Below, piece by piece: positions 19,253 through 64,000 of a DNA stretch of 64,000 nt. How positions within the stretch are numbered: position 1 is the first letter of the stretch; the number at the start of each line of letters is the position of its first letter. Made by a program: the position numbers and the translations under genes. The notes under the pieces are model-generated. The model saw only the letters and a program-made list of their open reading frames with translations, made no database searches and was not told the origin of the DNA. Source of the stretch: Candidatus Poribacteria bacterium (GTDB taxonomy: Bacteria; Poribacteria; WGA-4E; PCPOR2b); contig OZ242351.1 in the NCBI GenBank assembly GCA_965208675.1, positions 4,096,001-4,160,000 of the forward strand, in the 5' to 3' direction.

Positions 19253-19467
19253 ATTCATCCCTCCCGATGTTGTGCGGCTTAATGCGGCAATGACATCAGC
19301 CTCATTGCCTTCTACTATATTATGATGCACGTTGAGGGGAAGAGATCAGATGCTGACGTAATTATTTTGGAATAAGCGGTGGGAGAAATTGTAACGCCGT
19401 CAGCTAGATTAGGGACAGTGCGCCATGCATTGATTGTCAGGATATTCGTTTCACATCAATGGAAAGT

Positions 19468-47313: not shown

Positions 47314-48822
47314 TTACCTATCCCCCAACGGTGCTTTACCGTCAATCCGTTTTTCAAGGATGGCTACTCTAGGTAATGATGCACTTAAGTCTCCACCTGC
47401 AAGTTGCCCATGTGTACGCCACTGTCCACGTAAATTCCCGCCCATGCTACCATAAGTATCAGCCTCTGTATGCTCCGGTTGACTCCTCATCCAGTTGGTA
47501 TAGACAACTGGTTCCCCGCTGTTCCACTGCCATTCGCCCGCTTCAACTGAATAGGTCAACCCAATCCAATAGGAATGAAAGCCAAAGTGCTCGACCAGCC
47601 ATTCCTGCTCGGTACTGTCATTTATTGAAACGAGTTGTGCACCTTCTGTGCGTGCTTTGGTTTGGGCATCTTGCCAACTGCTGCAACGAATGCTTTTGTA
47701 AAGGCTTTCATTGGGAGCCCCAATCCACACGCCAAGCATGTTCGGTTCGGTGGGTGCCATCAATCCCATCATATCCCGAATTGGTGTGTCGTTGAGTGTG
47801 AAAACTACGTCTTTTCGTTCTTCCCCAGATTTGACCGTAAACTTCGATGTCGCAGAGAGTCCTTGATATTCTACGGAAGCGACATAGACTCCACGTTGTG
47901 GTAAATATTCGATAAAATAACCGGCATAATCGGTCACGGGCCGGCGACTTGAATGGTGGAGAGAATTTTTATCCGAACCGTCACTGCGTACGTCTAACAT
48001 GAACATTGCTTTCGGAAGGGCGGTGCCGTCCTCAAATACGATTCGTCCCCGCATTGACATGGAAGTTTCTTGGAGCGTGAAGACCAGATCTTCCCGCTGC
48101 TCTCCACCTTTTAGGGTAAACTCGGACGTTGCCGAAAGCCCTTGACATTTCACCGATACCTTGTAGGATGCGACCTCGAAATTAGGCTCATCAACGTATC
48201 TCACAAAGTAACCGTCGGAGTTCGTTCGCGTTGACCAATCTTTAAACTCTTTTCTGGCCAGCCTCCCAATGTCATACTCACGTTGCTCGTGGAGGTCGAT
48301 CTGTGCGTTAGCAAACTGTGTGCCATCCTTGGAAACCACCTTTCCCCGATACCGAGTACGAGGCCGCGCCGTGATTCTCACGTTTTCGAGATGTGTTCCC
48401 GGCTCAACCAAAAACTTAATCCCTTTTGGGTGCGACAGGATTGTTGGATAGACGGTTATCGCGCCGACTTTCATTGATAGCAATTCATAACTTTTCTGAG
48501 ATTCCTGCGGCGTTGAAGACGATCCAATCAGTTGAACCGGGCCGGACATTACGTGGGTGATAAAGAAGTGTCCCGCTTCATCGGTTTTATCGACAGATAT
48601 TATCGGAAGGCCGCCATTTTCCGCAACAGCATAGCCGTTGACAAGTTTTATGGGCTTCATGGTTAGAGGAAACCCGGCGACCGGGTTCCCTTCTACATCA
48701 ACTACACGCCCAGAGAGTGTGCTTGGGATTTTGGGCGTGATGCCGAGCGACACGGAGGTCAGCAACAACGCCACAATCCCGGTAATTGATGTCACGCTGA
48801 ATTTGAATATTGAACGATTCAT
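47314..48822 (-). CDS. secreted protein with carboxypeptidase-regulatory-like Ig repeats and a C-terminal C-type lectin domain
   Basis: Signal peptide; LSGRVVDVEGNPVAG; internal duplication (QGLSATSEFTLKGGEQREDLVFTL / QGLSATSKFTVKSGEERKDVVFTL); SWQDAQ..A...GAQLVSIND..EQEWL...YWIGL...WQWNSGEPVVYTNW. Confidence 0.85.
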   Translation of the reverse strand: MNRSIFKFSVTSITGIVALLLTSVSLGITPKIPSTLSGRVVDVEGNPVAGFPLTMKPIKLVNGYAVAENGGLPIISVDKTDEAGHFFITHVMSGPVQLIGSSSTPQESQKSYELLSMKVGAITVYPTILSHPKGIKFLVEPGTHLENVRITARPRTRYRGKVVSKDGTQFANAQIDLHEQREYDIGRLARKEFKDWSTRTNSDGYFVRYVDEPNFEVASYKVSVKCQGLSATSEFTLKGGEQREDLVFTLQETSMSMRGRIVFEDGTALPKAMFMLDVRSDGSDKNSLHHSSRRPVTDYAGYFIEYLPQRGVYVASVEYQGLSATSKFTVKSGEERKDVVFTLNDTPIRDMMGLMAPTEPNMLGVWIGAPNESLYKSIRCSSWQDAQTKARTEGAQLVSINDSTEQEWLVEHFGFHSYWIGLTYSVEAGEWQWNSGEPVVYTNWMRSQPEHTEADTYGSMGGNLRGQWRTHGQLAGGDLSASLPRVAILEKRIDGKAPLGDR

Positions 48823-49218: not shown

Positions 49219-52017
49219 TCATTGGTTTTCCAAATGACTCACATCTATCTTCCAACACTGAATGTTTGAATCACCCTGAGAAAATAAGATTGTTTTGCCG
49301 TTCGGTGCCATAAAGATAGGATTAGCGTTTACCGGTATGCTAAACGAGAACTCCTTGGAAATTGAGCCATCAAGCGAAACACGCTGGAATTTACCGAGAT
49401 ACGCATATGCAAGGTAAGTCTTACCGTCAGGAGACCAACTTAATCGGACACAATTCTTGCGTAGCTTTGTTGATTTTCCGCCATCTAAAGACGCCAGCCA
49501 GGTTTCTCTGTGTATTTCGAACGTCAGTTGCTTTCCATCAGGTGTCCAGCCAATCTGCATCTCATGTTCTGGAGTGTTGGTAATTCGCTTGGGTGCTCCA
49601 CCCGATGCAGAAAGAACGTACAGATCGCCTTCCATTTCAGGATAATGAAATGCTCCCTTCTCCCTCTCCAATCGAAGAAATGCCATACTTTTCCCATCGG
49701 GTGACCAAGCTACTTCTCCGACTACTCCTGGCTCTGTGAGTCGTTTTACGTGACCACTCGAAACAACAACAATACAGAGTTGAACCTGGTTAATGCCCTT
49801 GGCATCAAGAAATGCGATTCGTTGTCCATCGGGCGACCAGCGCGGCTTGCGGACATAGAAATCCCCTTGGATTAACTGTTTGGACCGTCCTCCTGACACT
49901 GGCATGATTTGAAGTGTGGAATTCTCGTAAAGCTTTTCACCTTGAGCAGACATTTTTAACTTTCGCCGTACGAACGCAATCCGCTTGCCATCAGGAGAAA
50001 AGGTGGATTCACCAAGCTCGATTCTCTTCGGGAGTGAAATAGGCACCGGTGTCAACTCGCCGGTTTCTACATTCAGGAGGCCGGGTTTTTGGTTGCCCGA
50101 CGATGGGAGACATAAATGTTTGCCGTCGGCTAGCCATTGTAAGGGTTCAGACTGCCACATTAAACTCGGGTCCAGGCTCATGGTTCGGTATTCACCGTTT
50201 TTGAGACTAAGAGCATAGGTTTTATCATTGAAAGACGTTTCCACCATGATAATTTCTCCTCCGGAAGTCCACCTGATTGGTCTGCCAAACATATCCGAAT
50301 CTGACATAACAGCCTTGAGAAGAATTGGTTTTCCCGAAAAATTTCCTTCCTTATTGACGCGAGAGGCGTAAAACCCTTTATGACTGTTTAAACTTTGGGT
50401 GAAGTTGGAATAATAAGCCATCCACCGTCCATCGGGTGAATATACGAGCGGCTTTAGTGCAGAACCATCTACTACGATCCTTTGCTTATCACCGTCTAAC
50501 GCGTGAATCCACCTGCGGCTACCAACCCCAACGCCTCGTCGCGATAAATAATTAATCCATCTTCCATCTCCCGACCAAATTGGGTTGGTATTCTCTTTGC
50601 CATCGGTCGTAAATGGACGAATCTTCCCCGTAGCGATTGATACGATGAAGATATCTGTGTTTTCACCGTTAACCCTTTCAAATGCGAGTTCCTTCCCGCC
50701 GGGCGACCAACTTAGGCCTTCTGGCCCCCTGTTGGAACCGGTTTCCGCTAGGAAACGAATTTTGCCTCCAGACACGGGAATAAGACATACGTCCATGTCT
50801 TCACCCGTTCCGGGACTCGTCCCAGTCGAAGGACTGTGACGATAAAATGCAATCCACCGTCCGTCCGGAGACCACTTCGGTACATAATAGACCGTTGGAA
50901 TACCCTCATCCACCAAAACCGTCGGTTTAACCGGCATATCTTGCGATGCGGATGTTACGGGCAAAACCAAAAGACCACGTGGAGTTGAAGAAGGCCCCCA
51001 ACTGAAGTAAGCCATTTTTGTTCCATCGGGCGAAAAATCCAGATTTCCATGAGGATTGACACCATCAGGAAGGTATACGCCCGTTAATGATACACCATTT
51101 TTCTGCGAGGATCTGAGTTGTCCATCTCCGGTTAGCAGTTTCCGTCGCGCCGGTTTCTGCCCAAAATCACCATTTTCCCCTTCAGCGCCGAGTATCGCAA
51201 CCCGAGTCGCTTCCACATCTACGGGAAGGTCGCCATCCTCGAAAACCTGTGTGTTCAGAGGCAGAGAGCCGCCGAGCCATTCGCCCAACGGATAAAGCGG
51301 GCTGTGCGGAAGGCTCAAACTCAAAAGCAAAAGAATTACCCCGCCTGCTGCGGATAGCCCCAAAGGCAGCGCGGTCTTGTGGGGTGCGGTTTGAATCTTT
51401 GCGTTACTGATTAACTCTACCACATGGGCGGTGAATCCCGGCTGTAATTTTCTTTCGGCAAAAGCAGTGCGTATCATTGGAATCATCTCCTCACTTAAGG
51501 CAGTTTTCAATTTTGCTCTGGCTCGCACGAGTCGCTGATCGATGGTGTTTGGAGACACTCGCAAAGTTTGGGCAATCTCCTTGCTTTTCATGCCTGCCAT
51601 GTAACGGAGCATTAACACTTGACGGTGCATCTCGGGGAGAGAAGCCAATGCGTCGTGAACCCGTTCATTTTTCAGTTTTTCCGAGTGTGCCTCAACGTCC
51701 ATTCGATGATTCTCGTCTTGCTCGGCAAGGTGCGCCGTGACGACCTGTCTTTTTTGGGCGCGGTGATAATTCTTGCACTGATTCGAAGCAATGGAATAGA
51801 GCCACGGATAGAAGTTGTCCCATCGCCGCAGAGTTGACAGGTTCTTATACGCTTCAAGAAAGACATCCTGAGTTAAATCTTCAGCGTCATGAAACTGTCC
51901 GACCTTCGCGTACACGAGCGCGAAGATGCGCTCTTTGTATTTGTCAACCAACAGGGCAAATGTCTCCGTGTTTCCCGAAAGACATTGATGAACGATATGA
52001 CCATCTCTAGTGTGCAT
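49219..52017 (-). CDS. ECF sigma factor-TM-TolB-like (PD40) beta-propeller fusion, array copy 1
   Basis: Region 2 AEDLTQDVFLEAY..PWLYSIA, region 4 LPEMHRQVLMLRYMAGMKSKEIA, TM LPLGLSAAGGVILLLLSLSL, and more than 10 W/FSPDG-type repeats. Confidence 0.93.
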   Translation of the reverse strand: MHTRDGHIVHQCLSGNTETFALLVDKYKERIFALVYAKVGQFHDAEDLTQDVFLEAYKNLSTLRRWDNFYPWLYSIASNQCKNYHRAQKRQVVTAHLAEQDENHRMDVEAHSEKLKNERVHDALASLPEMHRQVLMLRYMAGMKSKEIAQTLRVSPNTIDQRLVRARAKLKTALSEEMIPMIRTAFAERKLQPGFTAHVVELISNAKIQTAPHKTALPLGLSAAGGVILLLLSLSLPHSPLYPLGEWLGGSLPLNTQVFEDGDLPVDVEATRVAILGAEGENGDFGQKPARRKLLTGDGQLRSSQKNGVSLTGVYLPDGVNPHGNLDFSPDGTKMAYFSWGPSSTPRGLLVLPVTSASQDMPVKPTVLVDEGIPTVYYVPKWSPDGRWIAFYRHSPSTGTSPGTGEDMDVCLIPVSGGKIRFLAETGSNRGPEGLSWSPGGKELAFERVNGENTDIFIVSIATGKIRPFTTDGKENTNPIWSGDGRWINYLSRRGVGVGSRRWIHALDGDKQRIVVDGSALKPLVYSPDGRWMAYYSNFTQSLNSHKGFYASRVNKEGNFSGKPILLKAVMSDSDMFGRPIRWTSGGEIIMVETSFNDKTYALSLKNGEYRTMSLDPSLMWQSEPLQWLADGKHLCLPSSGNQKPGLLNVETGELTPVPISLPKRIELGESTFSPDGKRIAFVRRKLKMSAQGEKLYENSTLQIMPVSGGRSKQLIQGDFYVRKPRWSPDGQRIAFLDAKGINQVQLCIVVVSSGHVKRLTEPGVVGEVAWSPDGKSMAFLRLEREKGAFHYPEMEGDLYVLSASGGAPKRITNTPEHEMQIGWTPDGKQLTFEIHRETWLASLDGGKSTKLRKNCVRLSWSPDGKTYLAYAYLGKFQRVSLDGSISKEFSFSIPVNANPIFMAPNGKTILFSQGDSNIQCWKIDVSHLENQ

Positions 52018-52050
52018 TGGCGCTCCCTCGAATGAGATGATTGTTACTGC

Positions 52051-52084
52051 CTTTATAGTAACCGCTCAACCCCGAATTCTGACA
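52051..52084 (-). promoter_or_regulatory. putative ECF-type promoter of copy 1
   Basis: Minus strand TGTCAG-N17-TTACTATAAAG preceded by an A-tract; conserved upstream of copies 1-4. Confidence 0.55.
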
Positions 52085-52296
52085 TCGGGTTGATTTTTTT
52101 GAGGAGAAACGTCGCAACCGCTACAGGGGAATTGAAAGCGTTCCCGCGAATATTTTACTTTGTCTGAATCAGGATTGACAGGATTTTAGGATATTCAGGA
52201 TGTTGCATCCGCTCATACTGAAACTGATTGTGCACAGACGTGAACATTGGGGGACAGGAAATGGGGATGCACATGCAGTGGATGTTTGCCGTGTAT

Positions 52297-52346
52297 AGAA
52301 AAGAAAAAGGCGTCCATCTGCCGTGAAACTGGGGCAAATGGACGCC
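52297..52346 (-). terminator. intrinsic terminator after copy 2
   Basis: GGCGTCCATTTGCC-loop-GGCAGATGGACGCC then TTTTTCTTTTCT on the minus strand. Confidence 0.85.
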
Positions 52347-52399
52347 GTTATTAAACTCTCAAATTATGGGCGTGTCTGTTGTATACTTTGAGGAATCCG

Positions 52400-55321
52400 C
52401 TATTGATTGACGAGATGACTCACATCAATGCTCCAACACGACTTTACCGAATCGACCTGCCTTAGTAGGATTGTTTCGCCGTCGGGAGACATAGAGAGTG
52501 GTCGAGCATTCATCGGAGCACGAGCCGAGAGTTCGGAGGATATCGCGCCATTTGACGATACGCGTTGCAACTTCCCATGCGGTCCGAATGCATGATACGT
52601 TGCCCCATCCGATGACCAGCTCGACGGAATATAATTCCTATGCAACTTCTTCGGTTGCCCGCCGTTAATTGATATAACCCACCAAGCCCCGTCGTTTGTT
52701 TTGTACGTGAGTTGTTTGCCATTGGGCGTCCAATGGATTTCCGATTCCCCTTCGTTGCGAGTGTTGGTAATTTGCCTTGACTCCCCACCGGTTGCGGGTA
52801 CAATGTGGATGTCGTCAGGCGGCGATTTTTTGTACGCCAGTATTGTACCATCGGGCGACCAAGCTGGTTCGCCGAACCGGCCTGAATCTGCCATTAGTAT
52901 CTTCACTTTACCGTCCGATACGGAAACGACGCAAAGTTGCGACTCCGGGCCACTTTGCATCTCAGTTCTTCTCGTTATCCCATTGATGAAAGCGATTGTT
53001 TGACCATCAGGCGACCAGCGTAGATGGGAGGGCCACGATTCGCCATGCGTCAACTGTCTGGGTGTTCCACCTGGCACTGGTATGATGTACAATTGGCGTT
53101 CAGTGTCGGGGTGTTTAACCATAATCACAAATGCGATTTGTTTTTCATCAGGAGAAAGGGTAGATTCGTCAAAATTTATTTCTTTGAAAAATTCAAGAAG
53201 TTGACTGCGAGTAAAACGGTTGGTTTCAATGTCTAAAATCCCGCATCTCGCACCACTGCCAGGCAAGTTCACGCTAGATGGGAAAAACAGACGATTCCCG
53301 CCAGAGAGCCACTGTACACCTATAAGTTGCGGATCTGTAAGCGGAAAAAGCGGAATACTCGTCGGAAAACGCGGAACGTGGTAAATGCTCGTATCAGTAT
53401 TGAGGTAGCGTCGTGCGCCACGTTTTGTCTGGACGTTAAAATAGGCAGCTTCACTGCGGTAGCATAGTGTACCGCTTTTTGTTTTGAGAGCAGCGTAGGT
53501 AACCTTTATGCGATCCTCTTGTAGAATGATGATTTTTCCGCCCGGTGTCCACCGCAAAAGTTTCGGTGCATATTGAAATTTCTCCGGTTCAATTAAAATT
53601 GGATCTCCTGCTAAGTCGCCATGTTCGTTGAAGTGGTCAACAGCAATGCCGGGAAACGAGAAACTGCCGTTCGTAACGGCAATGTTGTTGCGGGCAACCC
53701 ATTTTCCGTTGGGTGAATAAACGAACTCGTCTTGTATGGCAACAACGTTTATCGGTGTTGTCCCACCGCCATCAACAGGTTGTTTCCAGACAGGCTTGCC
53801 GAGATATGTTTCCCGAGATGAAGGGCGTTGCGATAAATAGAAAATCCAGTTTCCATCAGGCGACCACGATGGCGAGGTATTCCCTTTTCCGTCCGTTGTA
53901 AATGGGCGTACTACTCCGGTGTCTAGCGACACGATGCTAATATCCGTATTCTCTCCTGTCCATTTGACAAACGCAATCTCTTTGCTATCAGGTGACCAAC
54001 TGAGTCCACGCGAGTGCTTTTGAGAGTCGGTCCGGGCGAGGAAGCGCATTCTGCCGCCTGCCGCAGGAATAAGATATAAATCAATGTCACTTCCATAACC
54101 TTCCGCCCTCGGATATTGATGTTCCTGACGATAAAAGGCGACCCACTTCCCGTTAGGCGACCACTTAGGTTGAAAATATTGTGTTGTTGCACCCTCTCCT
54201 TGCACTAGAACTGTTTTTTTAGGCGAGACATCGCTTGATGCGTCTACTAAAGGCGACACAATAAGTTGGAACTCATACCCTAAGGATGTAACTCCTCTGC
54301 CGAGGTAAACCATCTTCGTGCCATCGGGCGAAATGTCCATATCCCAAGAAGCATCATTTGGGAGATATATGCCCGTTGTCGTTATTTCCTCATTAGGATT
54401 GTCCATTTCCTCAGACTGGTTGATGGCTGTGGCTGCCTTTAACGGCTCCGGTCTCCGCCCAAAATCGCCATCTTCCCCTTCAGCGCCGAGTATCGCAACC
54501 CGAGTCGCTTCTGCATCTACGGGGAGGTCGCCATCCTCGACAACCTGTGTATTCAGAGGCAGAGAGCCGCCGAGCCATTCGCCCAACGAATAAAGCGGGC
54601 TGTGCGGAAGGCTCAAACTCAAGAGTAGGAGAATTACGCCGCCTGCTGCGGACAGTCCCAAAGGCAGAGCGGTCTTGTGGGGCGCGGTTTGAATCTTTGC
54701 GTTACTGATTAACTCTACCACATGGGCGGTGAATCCCGGCTGTAATTTTCTTTCGGCAAAAGCAGTGCGTATCATTGGAATCATCTCCTCACTTAAGGCA
54801 GTTTTCAATTTTGCTCTGGCTCGCACGAGTCGCTGATCGATGGTATTGGGAGACACCCGTAACGTCTGTGCAATCTCCTTGCTTTTCATGCCAGCCATGT
54901 AACGGAGCATTAACACTTGACGGTGCATCTCAGGGAGAGAAGCCAATGCCTCATGGAGTTGTTCGTCTCTCAATTTTTCCAAATGTGCTTCCATGTCTGG
55001 TCGCTGTGAGACACTCTCATCTTGGTCGGCAAGGTGTGCCGTGTCAACCTTTCTTTTTTGGGCATAGTGAAAATCCTTACATCGGTTTGAAGCAATCGAA
55101 TAGAGCCACGGATAAAAATTGTCCCATCGCCGCAGGGTTGATAGCTTCTTATAGGCGCTGAGAAAGACATCCTGAGTGATATCCTCTGCGTCTTGAAACT
55201 GGCCAACCTTTGCATACACGAGCGCGAAGATGCGCTCCTTGTATTTGTCAACCAACAGGGCAAATGCCTCCGTGTTGCCCGAAAGACATTGATGAACGAT
55301 ATTGCCATCTCCGGTGTGCAT
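52400..55321 (-). CDS. ECF sigma factor-TM-TolB-like (PD40) beta-propeller fusion, array copy 2
   Basis: Same architecture as copy 1; near-identical N-terminal ~290 aa, divergent propeller. Confidence 0.93.
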   Translation of the reverse strand: MHTGDGNIVHQCLSGNTEAFALLVDKYKERIFALVYAKVGQFQDAEDITQDVFLSAYKKLSTLRRWDNFYPWLYSIASNRCKDFHYAQKRKVDTAHLADQDESVSQRPDMEAHLEKLRDEQLHEALASLPEMHRQVLMLRYMAGMKSKEIAQTLRVSPNTIDQRLVRARAKLKTALSEEMIPMIRTAFAERKLQPGFTAHVVELISNAKIQTAPHKTALPLGLSAAGGVILLLLSLSLPHSPLYSLGEWLGGSLPLNTQVVEDGDLPVDAEATRVAILGAEGEDGDFGRRPEPLKAATAINQSEEMDNPNEEITTTGIYLPNDASWDMDISPDGTKMVYLGRGVTSLGYEFQLIVSPLVDASSDVSPKKTVLVQGEGATTQYFQPKWSPNGKWVAFYRQEHQYPRAEGYGSDIDLYLIPAAGGRMRFLARTDSQKHSRGLSWSPDSKEIAFVKWTGENTDISIVSLDTGVVRPFTTDGKGNTSPSWSPDGNWIFYLSQRPSSRETYLGKPVWKQPVDGGGTTPINVVAIQDEFVYSPNGKWVARNNIAVTNGSFSFPGIAVDHFNEHGDLAGDPILIEPEKFQYAPKLLRWTPGGKIIILQEDRIKVTYAALKTKSGTLCYRSEAAYFNVQTKRGARRYLNTDTSIYHVPRFPTSIPLFPLTDPQLIGVQWLSGGNRLFFPSSVNLPGSGARCGILDIETNRFTRSQLLEFFKEINFDESTLSPDEKQIAFVIMVKHPDTERQLYIIPVPGGTPRQLTHGESWPSHLRWSPDGQTIAFINGITRRTEMQSGPESQLCVVSVSDGKVKILMADSGRFGEPAWSPDGTILAYKKSPPDDIHIVPATGGESRQITNTRNEGESEIHWTPNGKQLTYKTNDGAWWVISINGGQPKKLHRNYIPSSWSSDGATYHAFGPHGKLQRVSSNGAISSELSARAPMNARPLSMSPDGETILLRQVDSVKSCWSIDVSHLVNQ

Positions 55322-55354
55322 CGGTGTTCCCTCGTATGAGATTGGTGTTACTAT

Positions 55355-55388
55355 CTATATAGAAGCCGCTTAACCCCGAATTCTGACA
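55355..55388 (-). promoter_or_regulatory. putative ECF-type promoter of copy 2
   Basis: TGTCAG-N17-CTTCTATATAG. Confidence 0.55.
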
Positions 55389-55596
55389 TCGGGTTGATTT
55401 TTTTGAGGAGAAACGTCGCAACCGCTACAGAAGAATTGAAGGGTTTCCTGTGAATATTGTACTCTGACTGAATCAGGATTTACAGGGTTAAAGGATTTTC
55501 AGAATATTATGCCTTCTCACACGGGAATCAATTGTGCAACAATGAAAACATTAGGGGTAAGCATGTGAGAATGCGCATTCAGTCATTAACCCATAC

Positions 55597-55646
55597 AGAA
55601 AAGAAAAAGGCGTCCATCTGCCGTAAATCTGGGGCAAATGGACGCC
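55597..55646 (-). terminator. intrinsic terminator after copy 3
   Basis: Same 14-bp stem and U-tract as 52297-52346. Confidence 0.85.
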
Positions 55647-55699
55647 GTTATTGAACTCCCAAAATACGGGCGTGGCAGTTGTGTACTTTGAGAGTCTCG

Positions 55700-58539
55700 C
55701 TACTGACTGACTAGATGACTCACATCAATGCTCCAGCACTGTGTTCCTGAATCAATCAGCCGATACAGAATGGTTTCACCGTCGGGCGACATTGAAAGCG
55801 GACGTGCGTCCGCCGGAACGCGAAACGGCAATTCGTCAATTGTCGTGCCGTCGAGAGTTACGCGCTGCAGTTCGCCGTTTCGTCCAATGGCGAGATAAGA
55901 CCTTCCATCCGATGACCAACTAGATGGGATATAATTTCTTCGCATTGGCTTCGGTTTCCCACCGTCGATTGACATGCCCCACGCTTGTCCGCCTATCTCG
56001 AACGTCAACCGCTTTCCATCGGGAGTCCACGAGAGTCTCCCGAAGGGTGTCCAAGACAGCAATATTTCCCCTTCGGGTGGACTATTGGGTGGAGCGGCTA
56101 TTCGCTTGGATTTTCCGCCCGTTGCCTGAACAAGATAGATGTCGACCTCTGTCTCATCGAAATCCAAATCTAAGACCTTTCCCTTACCCTTCAAGCGGAG
56201 ATACGCGAGCATTGTTCCATCGGGCGACCAAGCTGCTCCCATGCACCGTTCGGTATCTATGAATGTTTTCACCTGACCATCTGATACAGAAGCGACGCAG
56301 AGTTTTGACTTGAAACCTACTGAGGCAGCGAATTTCGCGTTGATGAACGCGATTTTTTGACCGTCGGGCGACCAGCGCGGATTCATACCATAAAACTCAG
56401 TTTGTGTCACCTTTTTGGATGTCCCGCCACCCACCGGCATGATGTGAAGATGCGCACTTACGTCAGGGGATATTCCCGCTAGTGCCGGATCCGTCTCCTT
56501 GGGTTGCAAGTGCACGTATGCCGCCCATTTTTCATCGGGCGAAAGGCTAGATAAACCGAAGAACGTCTCATCTGGAAGTTCTATGGGTAGCTCCGTAAAC
56601 TGACCCGTTTCGATGTCGAAAAATCCGGGGCGTCGGTTTCTGTCAGACACAAATAACAGACGATTCCCGTCGGATAACCACTGTGCATTTTTAAACCCAA
56701 ACTTCGAATCTGAATTCACGTGGCGTTTTTCACCGCCTTTTATGCGGAAGGCATAGGTCTTCTCAATATAATCCTCTTGCAGGACGATGATTTTCCCATT
56801 CGGTGTCCAGCGCAACGGTTTTGCCCCCACCTGGAGTCTCGCCGCTTTGAGTAGAATTGGCTTCCCTACCAGCTCGCCATGTTCACTGACGCGCGCTGCT
56901 ATGAAACCGCTCTGTCCATCGGGTAGGTATTTTGTATAGGCAATCCACTTTCCATCAGGTGAATGAATTGGAGGGCTAAGACCAACACGCTCGTTTACTA
57001 CTGCTTTTCCTCCAGCAACAGGCTGTCTCCACACGCGGCGGCTATCAATCCAGAGCCCTCGTTTTGATGAATAGAAGATCCATTCTCCATCAGGCGACCA
57101 AGATGGGTTAGTGTTCTCTTTCCCATCCGTTGTGAAAGGACGTGCTGCTCCGCTGTTGAGCGCGACTATCCAAATATCCGTTTTTTTCCCTTTCATCTTG
57201 ACATACGCGAGTTCCTTGCTGTCAGGGGACCAACTTAGTCTGTCATATTTTTCGGAATCGGTATGTGCAAGGAAGCGCATCTTACCTCCCGAAGCAGGAA
57301 TCAGACACACATCATAATGTCCGTAGTCTTTAAGGCCGTATTCGAGACGATAAAAGGCGATTAACTTTCCATTAGGTGACCATTTAGGTTGTACAGGCTG
57401 TACGCTCTCCGAACCATCTACATAGATAATTTTCCGCTCTACCGGTGTATTGGAGTCTAATTCGGTTAGTGGATAAACTGCAATCGACGGCTGTCGTAGA
57501 GCATGCTCCGCCGGAAACGGCACATAGGCGAATTGTGTGCCGTCAGGCGAAATATCAATGTCCCAGCCAAGATCCAAATCATCGGGTACGTGTATGGCGG
57601 TTACCGTTATTTCCTCATTGGGCTGGTCAGTTTCAGCCGACCGTACAATGGCGCTGGGCATCTTATGTGATTTCGGTCTCCGTCCAAAATCGCCATCTTC
57701 CCCTTCAGCACCGAGTATAGCGACCCGAGTCGCTTGCGCATTTACGGGGAGGTCGCCATCTTCGACAACATGTGTTTTTAGAGGCAGAGAGCCGCCCAAC
57801 CATTCGCCAAACGGATAAAGCGGGCTGTGCGGAAGGCTCACACTTAAGAGTAGGAGGATTATTCCACCTACAGCGGATAACCCCAAAGGCAGCGCGGTCT
57901 TGTGGGGCGCCGTTTGAATTTTGGTGTCGCTGATAAACTCTACCACGCGGGCGGTAAATCCCGGCTGTAATCTTCTTTCGGCAAAAGCAGTGCGTATCAT
58001 TGGAATCATCTCCTCGCTTAGGACAGTTTTCAATTTTGCTCTGGCTCGCACGAGCCGCTGATCGATGGTGTTTGGAGACACCCGCAATGATTCGGCGATC
58101 TCTTTACTTTTCATGCCAGCCATATAGCGGAGCATTAACACTTGACGGTGCATCTCAGGGAGAGAAGCCAATGCCTCATGAAGTTGTTCGACTCTCACCG
58201 CTTCCGAATCTGCATCAACAGCCGCTTGGTGATTGAGATTCCGAGCGAGAACGTTCATGGTTTCAACCTGCTCCTTTTGGGCGCGGTAAAAATTCTTGCA
58301 CCTGTTGGCGGCAATCGAATAGAGCCACGGATAGAAATTGTCCCATCGCCGCAGTGTCGACAGTTTCTTATAGGCGTTGAGGAAGATATCTTGTGTTAAG
58401 TCCTCAGCGTCTTGAAATTGCCCGACCTTCGCGTACACGAGTGCAAAGATACGCTCCTTGTATTTGTCAACCAACAGGGCGAATGCCTCCGTGTTGCCCG
58501 AAAGACATTGATGAACGATATACCGTCTCTGGTGTGCAT
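55700..58539 (-). pseudogene. ECF sigma factor-TM-TolB-like propeller fusion, array copy 3, with a 1-nt deletion at codon 7
   Basis: ATG CAC ACC AGA GAC GGT [-]AT ATC GTT CAT versus GGT CAT ATC GTT CAT in copy 1; 58539-55700 spans 2840 nt (not a multiple of 3); the rest (55700-58474) is open. Confidence 0.8.
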
Positions 58540-58574
58540 AAGCGTTCTCTCGTCATGAGATGACTGTTACTTCC

Positions 58575-58607
58575 CTATATAGAAACCGCTTACCCCGAAT
58601 TCTGACA
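58575..58607 (-). promoter_or_regulatory. putative ECF-type promoter of copy 3
   Basis: TGTCAG-N16-TTTCTATATAG (spacer 1 nt shorter than in the other copies). Confidence 0.5.
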
Positions 58608-58765
58608 TCGGGTTGATTTTTTTTGAGGAGAATGGTCACAATCGCTACAGTGAAACAGATTGTGTTCCTGTGAATATTGTAGCCCGCCTGAATCAGGATT
58701 GACAGGAATTTTGTGGTTTGTAGGATATGGGAATGCACATGCGGTGGAGGTTCCCGCGTGCGTAT

Positions 58766-58815
58766 AGAAAAGAAAAAGGCGTCCATCTACCGTAAATCTG
58801 GGGCAAATGGACGCC
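58766..58815 (-). terminator. intrinsic terminator after copy 4
   Basis: Same stem with one G-C to G-U change, followed by a U-tract. Confidence 0.85.
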
Positions 58816-58868
58816 GTTATTGAATGCCCAAAATCTGGGCGCGTCTGTTGTGTACTTTGAGAGGCCGG

Positions 58869-61673
58869 TTATTGATTGACGAGATGACTCACATCAATGC
58901 TCCAGCACTGTGTTCCTAAATCAGTCCGCCGAAACAGAATCGTGTCGCCGTCGGGCGACATTGAGAGTGGGCGAGCATCCGTCGGAACACGAAACGGGAA
59001 TTCGTCGATTGTCGTGCCGTCGAGAGATACTCGCAGCAATTCGCCGTTTCGTCCAATGGCGAGATAAGACATGCCGTCTGATGACCAACTCGACGGGATA
59101 TAGCCTCTTGGCAACTTCTTTGCTTCTCCGCCATTGATTGATGCAACCCATACCTCTTCTAGATTCACCGCTCCTTGAATCATCAAATTGAAGATTAGCT
59201 GCTTTCCATCGGGTGTCCAAGAAATGTTGATTTCCTTTCCAGGAGTGTTGGTTATCTGCTTGGCGTCTCCGCCCGCTGCCGGTACAACGTAGATATCACC
59301 TTCCATGTCTCCTTTTAAGTTGAGATAGGCGATTGTGATTCCATCCGGAGACCACGCAGGGCTCATGCACCGTTCCGAATCTGTGAGTTTTTTCATTTGA
59401 CCGTCGGACGCGGATACGACGCAGAGCTGCGACTTGTAACTCTCTGGCGAGCCAATCATCGCGTTGGTGAATGCGATGTTTTGGCCGTCCGGCGACCAGC
59501 GAAGTTCGTTCGCATAAAGCAGGCCGCTGGTCAATTGACGGATTTTTCCACCACTAATTGGTGCAATGTGGATATGAATGTTTCCTTTGGGCAAGCCGCT
59601 GGTTTGCTCTACATTTTTGAGATCGAACAGTGTGAACGCAACTTCCCTCTCGTTCGGCGATAGGGTAAGGGCACGTAGCAACATCCCCTTCGGAAGTTCA
59701 ATGGGGAGTTCGGTATATTGACTTGTTTCGATGTCGAAGAGTCCGGGGCGTATGTCTAGATCTTTTAAAGACGCCAGTAACAGACGTTTACCGTCGGATA
59801 GCCACTGTGCGCCTCCTTCAAACAATAGCGCCGGATTGGAACTCGTGCGGCGTTGTTCCCCGTTTTTTACGTTGAGGGCATAGGTCATCTCTCTGCGATC
59901 TTCTTGCACCACGATTATTTTTGCGTCCTGTCCCCACCGCAACGGTTTCGCGCTCGCCCCGAGTCCCATCGCTTTGAGCAGCATCGGTTCGCCCGACAAC
60001 TCACCCTGTTCGTTGACGCGACGTGTCAAAAAACCGAATTTAGCCTCGGGCAGATAGACGCCCGTGTAGACAACCCACTTGCCATCTGGTGAATAGATAG
60101 GAGACTGAACGATGGTGACATAATCATTTTCTATTACCGTCGCTTTACCGCCCTGAACCGGCTGTTTCCGCACGCGGTGGCTATCGTCCGAGGTGGATCG
60201 TCGCGATAAATAAGAAATCCACTTACCGTCCGGCGACCAGGATGGTTGAATATTCTCCTTTCCATCTGTTGTGAAGGGGCGAACCTCTTGGGTGTCGAGC
60301 GATACAATCCAAATGTCTGCTATCCTCTCCTTCCAGTTAATCCACTTGACAAACGCAAGATTCAAACTGTCAGGTGACCAACTCAATCCGCCAGACTGTT
60401 CAGAATTGGATTGCGGAAGCACGCGCATCTCGTCCCCTGACGCAGGAATAATGCAAACTTCATAGTGCTCACTATCTTCTTGATTGAGTTCGCTACGATA
60501 AAAAGCAATCCATCCTCCATCAGGCGACCATCGAGGTCGCGCTAACCGTACGTTGTTTGAACCATCGAGAAAGATGTCTTTCCGTTCTGCCGGTGCACTG
60601 GGGGCTAATCCTGTAAAAGGATAGAGTGCGAGAACCGGCTTCCATTGAGGCACATAGACAAATTGTGCACCATCGGGGGAGATGTCAATATCCCAAAGGT
60701 TAGAGCCCAAGTCATCGGGCATGGATATGGCGGATACCGTTATTTTCTCATTGGGGTTATCCATTTCATCTGGCTGCCCCACGGCCGCCTGCGTCTTGAG
60801 CGGCTCCGGTTTCTGCCCAAAATCGCCGTCTTTCCCTTCAGCACCGAGTATGGCTACCCGAGTCGCTTCTACATCTACGGGGAGCTCTCCGTCTTCGACA
60901 ACCTGTGTATTCAGCGGCAGAGAGCCGCCGAGCCATTCGCCCAACGGATAAAGCGGGCTGTGCGGCAGGCTCAAACTCAAGAGCAAGAGAATTACCCCAC
61001 CTACTGCGGACAGCCCCAAAGGCAACGCAGTCTTGTGGGGCGCGGTTTGAATCTTTGCGTCGCTGATTAATTCGACCACACGGGCGGTAAATCCCGGCTG
61101 TAATCTTCTTTCGGCAAAAGCAGTGCGTATCATTGGAATCATCTCCTCACTTAAGGCAGTTTTCAATTTTGCTCTGGCTCGCATGAGCCGCTGGTTTATA
61201 GCATTCGGAGACACCCGCAACGTTTCTGCAATCTCCTTGCTTTTCATGCCTGCCATGTAACGGAGCACTAACACTTGACGGTACATCTCTGGGAGGGAAG
61301 CCAATGCGTCGTGGACTCGTTCATTTCTCAGTTTTTCCGAGTGCGCATCCATGTCTGCCTGGTGATTCTCATCCGAGTCAGCAAGATACGCAGCGCCAAC
61401 TAGTCCTTTCTGATCTCGGTGAAAATTCCTGCATCGGTTTACGGCAATCGAATAGAGCCACGGATAGAAATTGTCCCATCGACGCAGGGTTGATAACTTC
61501 TTGTACGCTTTGAGAAAGACATCTTGGGTTAAGTCCTCTGCGTCCTGAAACTGCCCAACCTTTGCGTACACGAGCGCGAAAATGCGCTCTTTATATTTAT
61601 CAACCAACAGGGCAAATGCCTCCGTGTTACCCGAAAGACATTGATGAACGATTTGACCATCTGTGGTGTACAT
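58869..61673 (-). CDS. ECF sigma factor-TM-TolB-like (PD40) beta-propeller fusion, array copy 4
   Basis: Same architecture; region 4.2 reads SPNAINQRLMRAR versus SPNTIDQRLVRAR in copies 1-3. Confidence 0.93.
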   Translation of the reverse strand: MYTTDGQIVHQCLSGNTEAFALLVDKYKERIFALVYAKVGQFQDAEDLTQDVFLKAYKKLSTLRRWDNFYPWLYSIAVNRCRNFHRDQKGLVGAAYLADSDENHQADMDAHSEKLRNERVHDALASLPEMYRQVLVLRYMAGMKSKEIAETLRVSPNAINQRLMRARAKLKTALSEEMIPMIRTAFAERRLQPGFTARVVELISDAKIQTAPHKTALPLGLSAVGGVILLLLSLSLPHSPLYPLGEWLGGSLPLNTQVVEDGELPVDVEATRVAILGAEGKDGDFGQKPEPLKTQAAVGQPDEMDNPNEKITVSAISMPDDLGSNLWDIDISPDGAQFVYVPQWKPVLALYPFTGLAPSAPAERKDIFLDGSNNVRLARPRWSPDGGWIAFYRSELNQEDSEHYEVCIIPASGDEMRVLPQSNSEQSGGLSWSPDSLNLAFVKWINWKERIADIWIVSLDTQEVRPFTTDGKENIQPSWSPDGKWISYLSRRSTSDDSHRVRKQPVQGGKATVIENDYVTIVQSPIYSPDGKWVVYTGVYLPEAKFGFLTRRVNEQGELSGEPMLLKAMGLGASAKPLRWGQDAKIIVVQEDRREMTYALNVKNGEQRRTSSNPALLFEGGAQWLSDGKRLLLASLKDLDIRPGLFDIETSQYTELPIELPKGMLLRALTLSPNEREVAFTLFDLKNVEQTSGLPKGNIHIHIAPISGGKIRQLTSGLLYANELRWSPDGQNIAFTNAMIGSPESYKSQLCVVSASDGQMKKLTDSERCMSPAWSPDGITIAYLNLKGDMEGDIYVVPAAGGDAKQITNTPGKEINISWTPDGKQLIFNLMIQGAVNLEEVWVASINGGEAKKLPRGYIPSSWSSDGMSYLAIGRNGELLRVSLDGTTIDEFPFRVPTDARPLSMSPDGDTILFRRTDLGTQCWSIDVSHLVNQ

Positions 61674-61706
61674 GGGCGTCCTCTCGCAAAAGATGGTTGT
61701 TTTTAT

Positions 61707-61740
61707 CTATATAGAAACTGCCCACCCCCGAATTATTACA
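61707..61740 (-). promoter_or_regulatory. putative ECF-type promoter of copy 4 (variant -35)
   Basis: TGTAAT-N17-TTTCTATATAG; the spacer still starts AATTCGGGG. Confidence 0.5.
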
Positions 61741-61917
61741 CTTGGGGAATTTTTTTTATGAGAATAGCTGCAACTACTTAAGCAGTATTGAAGGTTTACC
61801 TGTGAATATTGTACTCTGTCTGAACCAGGATTTACAGGATTTTAGGACTTGCAGGATGTTGCATCGGCTCGCAGGCAATTGAAAATGCCACTAGTGAATA
61901 TATTGAGGGACAGAGAG

Positions 61918-62163
61918 TATAGTCGTTTTAGTTCAGATTTACACAAGGAGGAATGGACTATTTGAAAATCGAGGCTAGGAAGCCTCTCCTACACACCAAT
62001 GAATAAATGTATAATTCATGACTTGCGCAAATTGAAAAGAAAAGATGTGTTTTTTTGCTGAAAAAGTCGATATTGCGGTGTTTTTAACCCCCTAAATCCC
62101 CCTTATCAGGGGGACTTAAAGAGGAAGTGCGTAAGTCTTACAATTTTTAGTCCCATGGCTGTA
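61918..62163. mobile_element. MITE/REP-carrying repeat (homolog of 40080-40197) with a nested second element
   Basis: Homology to 40080-40197 on both sides of 62017-62140; absent from the other array spacers. Confidence 0.65.
62017..62140. mobile_element. MITE-like element with GACTT(A/G)CGCA ends and an internal CCCCCT/AGGGGG hairpin
   Basis: CATGACTTGCGCA ... TGCGTAAGTCTTA; flanks TAATT / CAATT resemble a 5-bp duplication; ends resemble those of 36331-36479. Confidence 0.65.
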
Positions 62164-62212
62164 GAAAAGAAAAAGGCGTCCATCTGCCGTGAAACTGGGG
62201 CAAATAGACGCC
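62163..62212 (-). terminator. intrinsic terminator after copy 5
   Basis: Same stem with one C-G to U-G change, followed by a U-tract. Confidence 0.85.
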
Positions 62213-62265
62213 GTTATTGAATGCCCAAAATGTGGGCGGGTTTGAAGTGAACTTTGAGTGACGAG

Positions 62266-64000
62266 CTATTGACTGACTAGATGACTCACATCAATGCTCC
62301 AGCACTGTGTTTCTGAATCAATCAGCCGATACAAAATGGTTTCACCGTTGGGCGATATTGAGAGCGGACGTGCATCCACCGGAACACGAAACGGTAATTC
62401 GTCAATTTTCGTGCCGTCGAGAGATACCCGCTGCAATTCGCCGTTTCGTCCAAATGCGAGATAAGATGTTCCATCCGATGACCAACTCGACGGGATAAAA
62501 TTTCTTTGCATTGGCTTCGGTTCCCCACCATTGATTGAAATAACCCACGCTTGCCCGCTTATCTCGAAGGTCAACCGTTTTCCGTCGGGTGTCCAACAAA
62601 GACTCCCATCAGGTGTCCAAGGCAGGAGTATCTCTCCTTCGGGTGGACTATCGGGTGGAGCACTGATTCGCTTGGATTCTCCGCCCGTTGCCGGAACAAG
62701 ATAGATGTCAACCTCTGTCTCATCGAAATCCAAATCTAAGACCTGTCTCTTACCCTTCAAGCGGAGGAACGCGAGCATCGTTCCATCTGGCGACCAAGCT
62801 GCTCCTGAGCACCGTTCGGTATCTGTGAATGTTTTCACCTGACCATCTGATACAGAAGCGACGCAGAGTTTTGACTCGAAACCAACTGATGCTGCGAGAT
62901 TAGCGTTGATAAACGCGATTTTTTTACCGTCGGGCGACCAGCGGGGGTTAATCCAAATAAACTCGGTTTGTGCCATCTGTTTGGAAGTTCCACCTGTTAC
63001 GGGCATGATGAGAAGATGCGCACTTACTTGGGGTACTCCGTCGACAAGTTTATGGGGCGTTTTGCGATGAATCTGCACATATGCAACCCACTTTTCATCG
63101 GGCGAAAGGGTGGCCCCGCTGAGCCATGTTCCCTCTGGGAGTTCGATGGGTAGCTCGGTGAATCGACCAGTTTCGATGTCCAAAAAACCGGGGCGCCGCT
63201 CTTTGCTAGAAACTAGAAAAAGCCGATTCCCGTCTGATTGCCACTGTGCGCCTTCAAACCAAAAGTCGGGATTGGAACTTACACGTCGTTGTTCGCCATT
63301 CTTTATATTGAGTGCATAGGTCATTTCTGTGTAGGCTTCTTGCAGTACGATTAGTCTTCCGTCTGGCGTCCACCGCAACGGTTTTGCGCCCACTTGGAGT
63401 CTCGCCGCTTTGAGGAAAATTGGTTCGCCTGTTAGCTCACCTTGTTCGTTGACTCGCGATGCAATAAAACCGCTTTTTCCATCGGGTAAGTAGTTCGTGT
63501 AGGCAACCCACTTTCCGTCGGGTGAGTGAATGGGTGGGTAGATGAGATGAAACCCTTCATTTACTGTTGCTTCACCATCCCGCACAGGCTGCCGCCATAC
63601 GCGGAGGCTATTTATCAAGAGGCCTCGTTTTGATGAATAGGCAATCCATTCACCATCAGGCGACCATGAGGGATCGGTGTTTTCTTTTCCATCCGTCGTG
63701 AATGGACGCACTGCGCCTGTTTCGAGCGAGACGATGTAAATGTCCGATTTCTTTCCTTTCGACCTAACAAACGCTAGTTCTTTGCTATCCGGAGACCAAC
63801 TTAACCAACCTGGGTGGTTGGTAGAATTGGTGTGCGCCAGGAAGCGTAATGCCCCGCCTGATGCGGAAACCAGATACACGTCCATATCTTTTCCATACGG
63901 ACCAATAGTCTCTCCCACACCGGGAACGTATGCAGTGTAAACATGACGATAAAATGCAATCCACTGACCGTCTGGAGACCATTTCGGCTGATAGTAATTC
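62266..64000 (-). CDS. TolB-like propeller part of array copy 5 (5' end outside the window)
   Basis: Frame is open to the window edge (NYYQPKWSPDGQWIAFYR...); same C-terminal CWSIDVSHLVSQ; most similar to copy 3. The sigma domain is inferred, not seen. Confidence 0.88.
   Translation of the reverse strand, partial: NYYQPKWSPDGQWIAFYRHVYTAYVPGVGETIGPYGKDMDVYLVSASGGALRFLAHTNSTNHPGWLSWSPDSKELAFVRSKGKKSDIYIVSLETGAVRPFTTDGKENTDPSWSPDGEWIAYSSKRGLLINSLRVWRQPVRDGEATVNEGFHLIYPPIHSPDGKWVAYTNYLPDGKSGFIASRVNEQGELTGEPIFLKAARLQVGAKPLRWTPDGRLIVLQEAYTEMTYALNIKNGEQRRVSSNPDFWFEGAQWQSDGNRLFLVSSKERRPGFLDIETGRFTELPIELPEGTWLSGATLSPDEKWVAYVQIHRKTPHKLVDGVPQVSAHLLIMPVTGGTSKQMAQTEFIWINPRWSPDGKKIAFINANLAASVGFESKLCVASVSDGQVKTFTDTERCSGAAWSPDGTMLAFLRLKGKRQVLDLDFDETEVDIYLVPATGGESKRISAPPDSPPEGEILLPWTPDGSLCWTPDGKRLTFEISGQAWVISINGGEPKPMQRNFIPSSWSSDGTSYLAFGRNGELQRVSLDGTKIDELPFRVPVDARPLSISPNGETILYRLIDSETQCWSIDVSHLVSQ

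Follow-up and report, generated by a model that had tools for sequence, protein, structure and literature searches.

Extracytoplasmic function (ECF) sigma factors that carry a membrane sensor in the same polypeptide have been predicted from several phyla, and those known to have been tested experimentally are IutY and, in part, SCO4117. IutY of Pseudomonas putida is an ECF243 sigma/anti-sigma hybrid (PMC5411451; PMC8999054) and, in the part of the latter source consulted, the sole fusion experimentally proven to be activated by regulated proteolysis, by Prc and then RseP; SCO4117 is the second such case, for which proteolytic activation is proposed and partly supported. For ECF57 (formerly ECF01-Gob) of Planctomycetes, the examined part of Supplementary Text S2 of PMC7826278 (Casas-Pastor et al. 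2021) proposes release from the membrane. Here, we present an analysis of a tandem array of five genes (A to E) in a 64,000-nucleotide stretch of DNA (the window; positions 4,096,001-4,160,000 of the 4.89-Mb single-contig genome of a Candidatus Poribacteria bacterium), each of which encodes an ECF sigma factor, a predicted transmembrane (TM) helix and PD40-type beta-propellers in one polypeptide. We estimate at about 60% the probability that these proteins are single-polypeptide receptors in which the propellers trigger proteolytic release of a shared sigma factor onto one regulon, with ancient sensors and an output module homogenized by gene conversion.

Based on a survey of open reading frames (ORFs), the array consists of five large head-to-tail ORFs on the minus strand, from 49219 to the end of the window. 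Gene A is complete just past the window, and no sixth copy lies beyond it in the whole genome; therefore, the array comprises exactly five copies. The genes, and for gene B the parts of its product, are as follows.

62266..64000 in the window, in full to window-equivalent position 65127, minus strand: gene A, 953 amino acids (aa) as a whole, the first transcribed.
62266..64000, minus strand: in-window portion of gene A, the C-terminal 577 aa with the propellers; PD40 by Pfam.
58869..61673, minus strand: gene B, 934 aa, with sigma2, sigma4, linker, TM helix, stalk and double PD40 propeller.
55700..58539, minus strand: gene C, with an ATG at 58539; the long ORF, 55700-58474, starts from a TTG and has 924 aa.
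52400..55321, minus strand: gene D, 973 aa, with two insertions in the propeller region compared with the other copies.
49219..52017, minus strand: gene E, 932 aa, the last of the array.
61405..61607, minus strand: sigma-70 region 2 of B, residues 23-89 (PF04542, 54.2 bits).
61164..61322, minus strand: sigma-70 region 4 of B, residues 118-170 (PF08281, 59.7 bits).
61029..61154, minus strand: cytoplasmic linker of B, residues 174-215, with two short predicted helices; a candidate in-cis inhibitory (anti-sigma-like) segment.
61131..61148, minus strand: GAGGAG ATG ATT CCA ATG in B, codons 176-181, a Shine-Dalgarno-like hexamer 9 nucleotides (nt) before an in-frame ATG.
60963..61028, minus strand: predicted TM helix of B, residues 216-237 (Kyte-Doolittle 19-aa mean 2.24; three K/R in the 20 aa before it, none in the 20 aa after).
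60804..60962, minus strand: juxtamembrane stalk of B, residues 238-290, conserved and predicted to be disordered; a candidate site-1 cleavage or docking region.
58872..60731, minus strand: two tandem PD40-type beta-propellers of B, residues ~315-934, the variable sensor.

Pfam, a check proposed by the sequence-only reading from which this work started, recovered Sigma70_r2 (PF04542, 48-55 bits), Sigma70_r4_2 (PF08281, 54-60 bits) and PD40 repeats in each of B to E, and PD40 in the visible part of A; the PD40 matches (PF07676) score 92-138 bits. The proteins have sigma2 and sigma4 only and score 90-101 bits with the NCBIfam model TIGR02937 (sigma70-ECF; cut-off 42.9), which places them among the ECF (group 4) sigma-70 factors, and the closest solved relatives are ordinary ECF sigma factors. 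All five copies contain one hydrophobic segment located 40-45 aa past sigma4 (Kyte-Doolittle 19-residue mean 2.0-2.3), with two to four K/R in the preceding 20 aa and zero to two in the following 20 aa. An AlphaFold2 model of B, made from a 75-row alignment (mean predicted local distance difference test score, pLDDT, of 73), has helical sigma2 and sigma4 domains (pLDDT 70-84), short predicted linker helices at residues 180-188 and 195-203, and an all-beta region at residues 315-934 that folds into two propellers, mostly at pLDDT 80-94. Its top Foldseek matches in the PDB are the double-propeller proteins 2ymu, tricorn (1k32) and Aip1 (1nr0), with E ~1e-16 and probability 1.00; the TM-scores are low (0.13-0.39) because the two propellers are placed differently in the targets, and hence we take from these matches the fold class only. 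By fold, the ectodomain consists of two PD40-type propellers in tandem. Thus, the architecture read from the letters alone, i.e., an ECF sigma factor, a single TM helix and extracytoplasmic PD40 propellers, agrees with Pfam, hydropathy and charge bias, and the claim that the array holds no separate anti-sigma gene agrees with the finding that no ORF of at least 35 aa recurs across the four intergenic gaps.

Each copy has a constant and a variable part. Averaged over all 10 pairs in windows of 30 residues, protein identity is 0.78-0.94 over residues 1-75, 0.45-0.53 in the linker between sigma2 and sigma4, 0.75-0.90 from residue 119 to ~270, and 0.24-0.65 in the propellers. Residues 1-285 have 75-94% identity between copies. 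At the nucleotide level, B to E are similar from ~-160 bp to +855 bp, with a sharp fall at about +857 nt, and the similarity of A to the others is confined to the coding part (70-88%). The constant module consists of upstream DNA, the sigma factor, a linker of ~40 aa, the helix and a stalk of ~50 aa. In the stalk, G249, L252, P253, G262, V266, D267 and L276 are kept in at least 90% of 75 homologues; these seven positions (residues 249-276) lie in or just past the motif G-E-W-L-G-G-x-L-P-L. The sequence-only reading had described nearly identical sigma, linker and TM parts followed by strongly diverging propellers. This split is real, as divergence is not uniform along the genes; the array is correctly described too, with the corrections that it lies on the minus strand and that the constant part is wider than was thought, extending from ~-160 bp to codon ~285 and including the stalk. 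The quoted linker and TM motifs, EEMIPMIRTAFAER and LPLGLSA.GG.ILLLLS.SLPHSPLY, occur in B to E, and their counterparts in A are more diverged (EDLVSMMPTALADR and LPVGLSAAGGLILLVLSLSLPQNPLH). Likewise, that the copies carry almost the same sigma factor holds for B to E, with nonsynonymous divergence (dN) of 0.02-0.09 in sigma2/sigma4, and less so for A.

Selection was estimated by the Nei-Gojobori method. Between copies, synonymous divergence (dS) is 0.84-2.3 in the propellers, with dN/dS of 0.20-0.30, and ~0.4-1.2 in the N-terminal module; sigma2 has dS from 0.64 to saturation and dN/dS of 0.01-0.08, and sigma4 has dN/dS of 0.06-0.20; over both sigma domains, dS goes from 0.4 to saturation. 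These duplicates are old, and purifying selection acts on them, most strongly on the sigma domains. Low dN/dS together with the ordinary ECF sigma factors found as solved relatives argues that the sigma factor is functional. Trees were made from 76 sequences, i.e., the five window copies, 10 relatives and those 61 metagenome proteins of 900-1000 aa (of P0007-P0073) that passed the length filter once duplicates had been dropped. In the tree of propeller columns, the five window copies are placed in five different starred clades, each together with orthologues from elsewhere: E with a G002 copy, D with P0041 (95% identical), C with P0015, B with P0007 and A with P0027. The tree of the N-terminal 292 columns groups by lineage, in groups of 30 and 44 rows that both have a Shimodaira-Hasegawa-like approximate likelihood ratio support of 95. 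Forcing the E-type sensor clade (15 rows) on the N-terminal data costs 676 log-likelihood units (approximately unbiased [AU] test, p 1.4e-4), and forcing the D-type clade (8 rows) costs 460 units (p 1e-40); both groups had been defined from the C-terminal tree ahead of the AU test. Moreover, D and E share 53 consecutive identical codons at alignment columns 160-212 (permutation p 0.0002), and B/D and B/E share 30 each (p 0.013 and 0.003, respectively); sigma2, unlike these stretches, is synonymously diverged. Within a lineage, strong purifying selection together with recurrent gene conversion thus maintains the similarity of the output modules, which the sequence-only reading had not anticipated, and the sensors keep their old identities.

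The sequence-only reading had proposed an amplifying repertoire. High dS values (0.4-1.2 and 0.8-2.3 in the two parts), separate orthologue clades, and tandem sets in other genera and families instead argue for an old, maintained set of paralogues with lineage-specific loss and gain. Based on dS and the trees, we rejected recent amplification as the origin of the array; three findings led us to reject misassembly of strain variants, namely dS, the orthologue clades, and that other genomes have such arrays too.

Full-length relatives of the array come from one phylum in our searches. All named homologues are from Candidatus Poribacteria. Among 26 genomes including G000 (E <= 1e-90; 34 candidates scored per genome), eight had matches. 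The comparison of copy number and synteny, which had been put forward as a check, gave tandem sets of four copies in G005 and of three copies, the third split, in G023, a member of another family; three genomes of the same genus have one PD40-type copy each, one of them frameshifted and one beside a WD40-fused sibling. A 252-aa and a ~200-aa gene located upstream of A also precede the three-copy set of G023/L034, so a genome of another family has this locus in common with the array genome, both neighbours included. In L033, the array of four copies is followed by a related protein of 242 aa. In a scan of species-representative genomes with two peptide patterns, which misses distant forms, all 16 full-length loci were titled Candidatus Poribacteria; hits in Planctomycetota, Phycisphaerae, Lentisphaerae, Chloroflexota and others covered only ~residues 1-204, at ~30% identity, and the ORFs of the eight best-scoring non-Poribacteria loci (L091-L098) contain no hydrophobic segment. 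Among 17 loci with 4-kb flanks, eight have two or more copies above 300 bits. Loci L091-L097 (Planctomycetota, Phycisphaerae, Lentisphaerae, Chloroflexota and untitled metagenome-assembled genome records) encode ECF sigma factors of 380-673 aa, which carry the motif LK-x-E-M-x-x-M-V...P..DF..RV past sigma4, as does the Poribacteria module; this argues that the linker motif predates the membrane-tethered form.

Within the genome, a search of the 5247 ORFs of at least 120 aa with a hidden Markov model (HMM) of the sigma part gave 44 ECF-like ORFs; 29 are longer than 340 aa, and 24 of the 44 have one hydrophobic segment shortly past sigma4. In addition to the PD40 repeats of the array, the fused ectodomains include WD40, BNR/sortilin, CarboxypepD_reg repeats with AhpC or C-type lectin, and a peptidase-M16-like domain, and several are without a Pfam match; two ORFs with LRR and Reg_prop extensions show no hydrophobic segment. 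The nearer paralogues are alike through the helix and stalk, with 42-44% identity over residues 1-300. The array represents one subfamily of a modular sigma-TM-stalk-sensor family. The fused design, with its module of ~290 residues placed on many ectodomains, appears to be the main sensing route of Poribacteria.

These findings also bear on what the propellers do. An alternative, which we consider very unlikely, is that they are not sensors but serve structural or degradative functions in the periplasm, as scaffolds or as modules that bind peptides, and that the sigma factor reports only the folding or turnover of its own protein as a generic envelope-stress read-out; the propellers would then differ because their clients differ, not because the signals do. 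PD40 propellers do resemble TolB, the N-terminal domain of DPP-IV and the tricorn protease, the genome encodes many stand-alone PD40 proteins, and the propeller dN/dS values given above indicate no overall diversifying selection. However, Pfam finds no peptidase catalytic domain in the array proteins, and the TolB model TIGR02800 scores 116-146 bits, far below its equivalog cut-off of 343, so that we rejected these proteins as TolB orthologues and regard their PD40 repeats as TolB-like only. Moreover, each sensor type forms its own orthologue clade across genomes, as distinct specificities would give, and the same sigma-TM-stalk module occurs on WD40, BNR/sortilin, LRR, M16-like, CarboxypepD_reg and lectin ectodomains, which is the pattern of a modular receptor family.

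In the model that we favour, the propellers are sensors of a released sigma factor. According to this model, the sigma domain would be kept inactive at the membrane, perhaps aided by the linker folding back onto it, and each propeller pair would bind its own periplasmic ligand or partner. Binding would expose the common stalk to a site-1 protease, an RseP-type site-2 protease would then cut in the Gly/Ser/Pro-rich helix, and the freed sigma fragment of ~25 kDa would steer the RNA polymerase to one common promoter set. In this way, any of several inputs would switch on the same regulon, with the array as an OR gate. The individual steps, i.e., ligand binding, cleavage of stalk and helix, sigma release and convergence on promoters, are inferred. 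The hydrophobic helix of the array proteins is rich in Gly, Ser and Pro, which is typical of site-2 protease substrates, and the genome contains an ORF of 604 aa for an RseP-like M50 protease.

The linker was examined for contact with the sigma domain. The predicted contact has an ipSAE score of 0.54, compared with 0.00 for the best of three controls, with a contact agreement between runs of at least 87% and a partner pLDDT of at least 63. The pass mark is reached by 116 of 157 solved complexes and by two of 215 mismatched pairs; a score in the range up to 0.60 occurs in just 18 of the 157 solved complexes and in both of these mismatches, and it is inflated here by the two chains being neighbouring parts of one polypeptide. 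We take this as weak support that the linker touches the sigma domain.

A model without proteolysis is an unlikely alternative. In this case, the tethered sigma factor would undergo a ligand-driven conformational or oligomeric change, the linker would let go and the polymerase would be recruited to the membrane, similarly to ToxR/CadC-type membrane-bound activators. In its favour, Pfam recognizes no anti-sigma domain in these proteins, the short linker has a weakly supported predicted contact with the sigma factor, and the consulted part of PMC8999054 lists conformational or protein-interaction control for other ECF sigma factors with extensions and suggests it for ECF57. On the other hand, sigma4 lies just ~40 residues from the membrane, a distance at which steric hindrance would seem to make it hard to form a holoenzyme, and the composition of the helix is that of a site-2 protease substrate. 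We also know of no membrane-tethered sigma factor that is active.

Several observations weigh against regulated release onto one regulon. RseP is present in 14 of 14 control genomes and is near-universal, so its presence discriminates nothing. Pfam finds no anti-sigma domain of the zinc-finger, RskA or FecR type in the array proteins. Residues 208-313 of the AlphaFold2 model, which include the TM helix and the stalk, have pLDDT below 50 (22-34 in 210-310) and give no usable model. The N-in/C-out topology that we infer is based on scanning for hydropathy, on charge bias and on the consideration that a sigma factor must be cytoplasmic. The sigma module of A differs at ~20% of residues, and accordingly a single output may not hold for all five copies.

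The upstream regions are a further point of this kind. Two sigma70-like sites, CTGTCA-N18-TACAAT/TAAAAT, lie upstream of C and E and suggest housekeeping rather than autoregulated transcription; such sites are not enriched in a consensus scan (22 found and 19.1 expected). By eye, the conserved regions contain no convincing ECF-type -35/-10 pair, and three conserved upstream blocks (16-20 nt each) are without near-exact matches elsewhere in the genome, so that no regulon can be inferred from them. A fourth block, a 13-mer, has 250 genome matches at up to two mismatches compared with ~108 estimated by hand for random sequence, and it seems to belong in part to a dispersed repeat. A search for RNA runs that contain 52001-62000 of the window listed none.

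Finally, the integrity of the locus has to be considered. No short-read contig spans two copies, as the assembly breaks at the repeated N-terminal modules. In run X1, the zero-difference contig depth on the unique sensors is similar, at 26.7 for E, 23.1 for D, 20.7 for C and 20.6 for B, which speaks against a misassembly; many X1 "joints" (~3.1-3.2 kb and ~6.4-6.5 kb) represent cross-mapping of paralogues at 90% likeness, and they are no evidence for or against the order in which the copies lie. Gene C is one base short between 58522 and 58521, after codon 6, compared with the other copies, which puts its ATG at 58539 out of frame, and the long ORF begins at a TTG at 58474, 22 codons in. Run X1 matches the window at this frameshift, with none of a depth of 21.4 having the extra base. 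Starting from the TTG leaves the Pfam sigma2 domain whole, and the dN/dS of C is not raised; thus, C has either been damaged recently or uses the later start. Contigs of the sponge metagenomes X5-X7 have the extra base at 58521 and, at 90% likeness, are possibly from paralogues; because of this possible origin we did not count them as proof of an intact C in other strains.

Each copy looks like its own transcription unit, because terminators follow A to D and B to E share an upstream region. A hairpin with a 14-bp stem and a U-run lies just past the stop codons of A to D (-24.6 to -26.9 kcal/mol, z -5.4 to -7.5), and the 38-mer has four genomic copies, all within the array. The ~160 bp common to B to E bear a GAGGGA-type ribosome-binding site, and the region upstream of A is unrelated to them. 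The elements are as follows.

61674..61835, minus strand: conserved upstream region of B, ~160 bp, common to B, C, D and E and not to A.
62175..62212, minus strand: hairpin terminator 3' of A, with a 14-bp stem, a 10-nt loop and a U-run (-24.6 kcal/mol, z -6.5).
58778..58815, minus strand: hairpin terminator 3' of B (-24.9 kcal/mol, z -6.0).
55609..55646, minus strand: hairpin terminator 3' of C (-26.9 kcal/mol, z -5.4).
52309..52346, minus strand: hairpin terminator 3' of D (-26.9 kcal/mol, z -7.5).
47314..48822, minus strand: downstream neighbour of 502 aa, with a hydrophobic N-terminal segment (by eye) and CarboxypepD_reg and C-type lectin domains.

In the spacer between B and A, an element of ~53 nt (62084-62136) contains a CCCCCT...AGGGGG hairpin; its first 30 nt have five exact copies in the genome and 20 at up to six mismatches, and its summed contig depth is extreme in all four sponge runs (up to 14181 compared with ~25 nearby). 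It looks like a dispersed repeat of the repetitive extragenic palindromic (REP) or miniature inverted-repeat transposable element (MITE) type.

The 502-aa downstream neighbour is a possible target of the array. On the other side, 5' of gene A (L038:1256-5119), lie three unrelated genes on the minus strand, each with a hydrophobic N-terminal segment (by eye), which encode a 199-aa lipoprotein-like protein without a Pfam match, a 252-aa protein with a weak match to 3-keto-disaccharide-hydrolase/DUF1080-like domains and a 777-aa protein with 13 WD40 repeats; these are possible partners or targets of the array as well.

Other fusions and PD40 proteins are found elsewhere in the genome. A sigma-TM-sensor fusion of 952 aa with a BNR/sortilin-type propeller ectodomain is encoded at 16472-19330 (minus strand) of the window, beside a 948-aa protein with a 5'-nucleotidase C-terminal domain and FlgD-Ig domains (13137-15983). 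Further clusters of sigma-TM fusions lie at genome positions 2,755,226-2,779,196 and 1,537,227-1,551,663; one consists of proteins of ~345-500 aa without a Pfam ectodomain, and the other has three members with CarboxypepD_reg repeats, to which a C-type lectin domain is added in some. Runs of many adjacent sigma-less ORFs with PD40 repeats (~330-660 aa) lie at 3,170,183-3,179,392, 1,126,881-1,140,461 and 4,539,967-4,548,238, which suggests a tandem expansion of stand-alone periplasmic PD40 proteins as well. An unrelated SNF2-family helicase of 1025 aa (SNF2-rel_dom, Helicase_C, ResIII) is encoded at 237-3314 on the minus strand.

The array genes may encode a second product. Past sigma4, the stretch GAG GAG ATG ATT CCA ATG is identical at the nucleotide level in B to E, and a restart at the in-frame Met181 (or Met178) behind GAGGAG would add a sigma-less protein with a short tail, the TM helix, the stalk and the propellers. 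This is the layout of a classical single-pass anti-sigma factor, and such a product could hold the sigma factor in trans or titrate ligand; the internal start may be left over from an anti-sigma gene that was once separate. We regard this reading as less likely than not, and it is compatible with regulated release as the main function. The stretch is kept in 10 of 11 copies compared in relatives, and E176 and E177 are both GAG in 11 of 11 genome records (one copy each); for comparison, E188 is GAA in eight of eight records and E201 is GAG in five and GAA in five. Codon identity at conserved residues peaks at 176-191 (0.83 compared with 0.59 overall; permutation p 0.008), the stretch being under synonymous constraint, as would fit an internal ribosome-binding site and start, and paralogues with other sensors (L013 and L014) keep AAG GAG or GAG GAG ahead of Met. 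However, the motif K/E-E-M-x-x-M-V/I is also present in soluble, TM-less ECF sigma factors of Planctomycetota and Lentisphaerae, so that constraint at the protein level accounts for part of this conservation. Moreover, copy A reads GAA GAT and lacks GGAG, the 11 records are related rather than independent, and gene conversion likewise yields identical codons.

Taken together, we tentatively propose, as less probable than not, a more specific model in which the array is a constant/variable receptor locus: gene conversion would homogenize an output cassette that extends from the promoter-proximal DNA to the protease-docking stalk, the copies would form an OR gate on one regulon with a threshold set by an anti-sigma-like product from the internal start, and the fused design would be the main mode of transmembrane signalling in Poribacteria. 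The array represents a natural experiment, as its five old sensors all feed a single conserved output module. It singles out the stalk and helix as the place where processing would be shared, and convergence of the copies on one promoter set is its prediction. The compact polypeptide of sensor and sigma factor could be reused as an orthogonal one-protein switch, and with regard to sponge symbiosis, the family provides a large set of candidate receptors for host or environmental cues.

Among titles and the beginnings of abstracts on sigma factors or ECFs of Poribacteria, we found none on these proteins; bioRxiv supplements and subscription journals lay outside this search. The systems described are relatives in design. 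As described in the examined part of PMC7826278, ECF57 has a long, membrane-crossing C-terminal extension with WD40-like (PD40) repeats in part of the group and no separate anti-sigma factor, as in the array, and ECF57s3 has a CarboxypepD_reg protein in its neighbourhood, as does the array directly downstream (47314-48822). By contrast, ECF57 is 100% from Planctomycetes, and the array family is from Poribacteria, a name with no occurrence in that part of the supplement; its extension has ~2 TM helices, compared with one here by hydropathy scan; and it has a fully conserved Cys pair in sigma2 and sigma4, whereas the N-terminal part of the array proteins has cysteines at residues 12 and 81 (59 in C) and nowhere else, so that sigma4 (~118-175) has none. 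In ECF57s2, 21% carry repeats, compared with a full double propeller in all five copies here, and tandem arrays, concerted evolution and a conserved stalk are absent from that part of the description. The sequence-only reading had named ECF57 as a precedent, and this is true of the fused ECF design and the PD40 repeats but not of taxon, Cys pair and TM number (three of four features fail); the array is thus set apart from ECF57 by described features rather than by group HMMs.

SCO4117 (ECF52) and ECF48/ECF53 of Actinobacteria are alike, in the consulted part of PMC8999054, in having a membrane-spanning extension and an extracytoplasmic ligand-binding domain. They differ in having a zinc-finger anti-sigma domain, one to two TM helices and a proline-rich and carbohydrate-binding ectodomain; Pfam finds no zinc-finger, proline-rich or carbohydrate-binding features of this type in the array proteins. 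IutY, in the same part of that source, is likewise one polypeptide with an N-terminal ECF sigma factor, one TM helix and a periplasmic domain, and its activation by regulated proteolysis is the mechanism that we propose for the array. However, IutY is of the FecI/FecR type and works together with a TonB-dependent outer-membrane receptor; no FecR family is among the array's Pfam matches at E <= 0.01. The array proteins instead have a double-propeller ectodomain and a linker far shorter than a FecR-type anti-sigma domain, and IutY, as described there, is a single gene and not an array of paralogues. The points of note of the Poribacteria array are its concerted evolution, which within each receptor gene is confined to the output half, and a possible second product.

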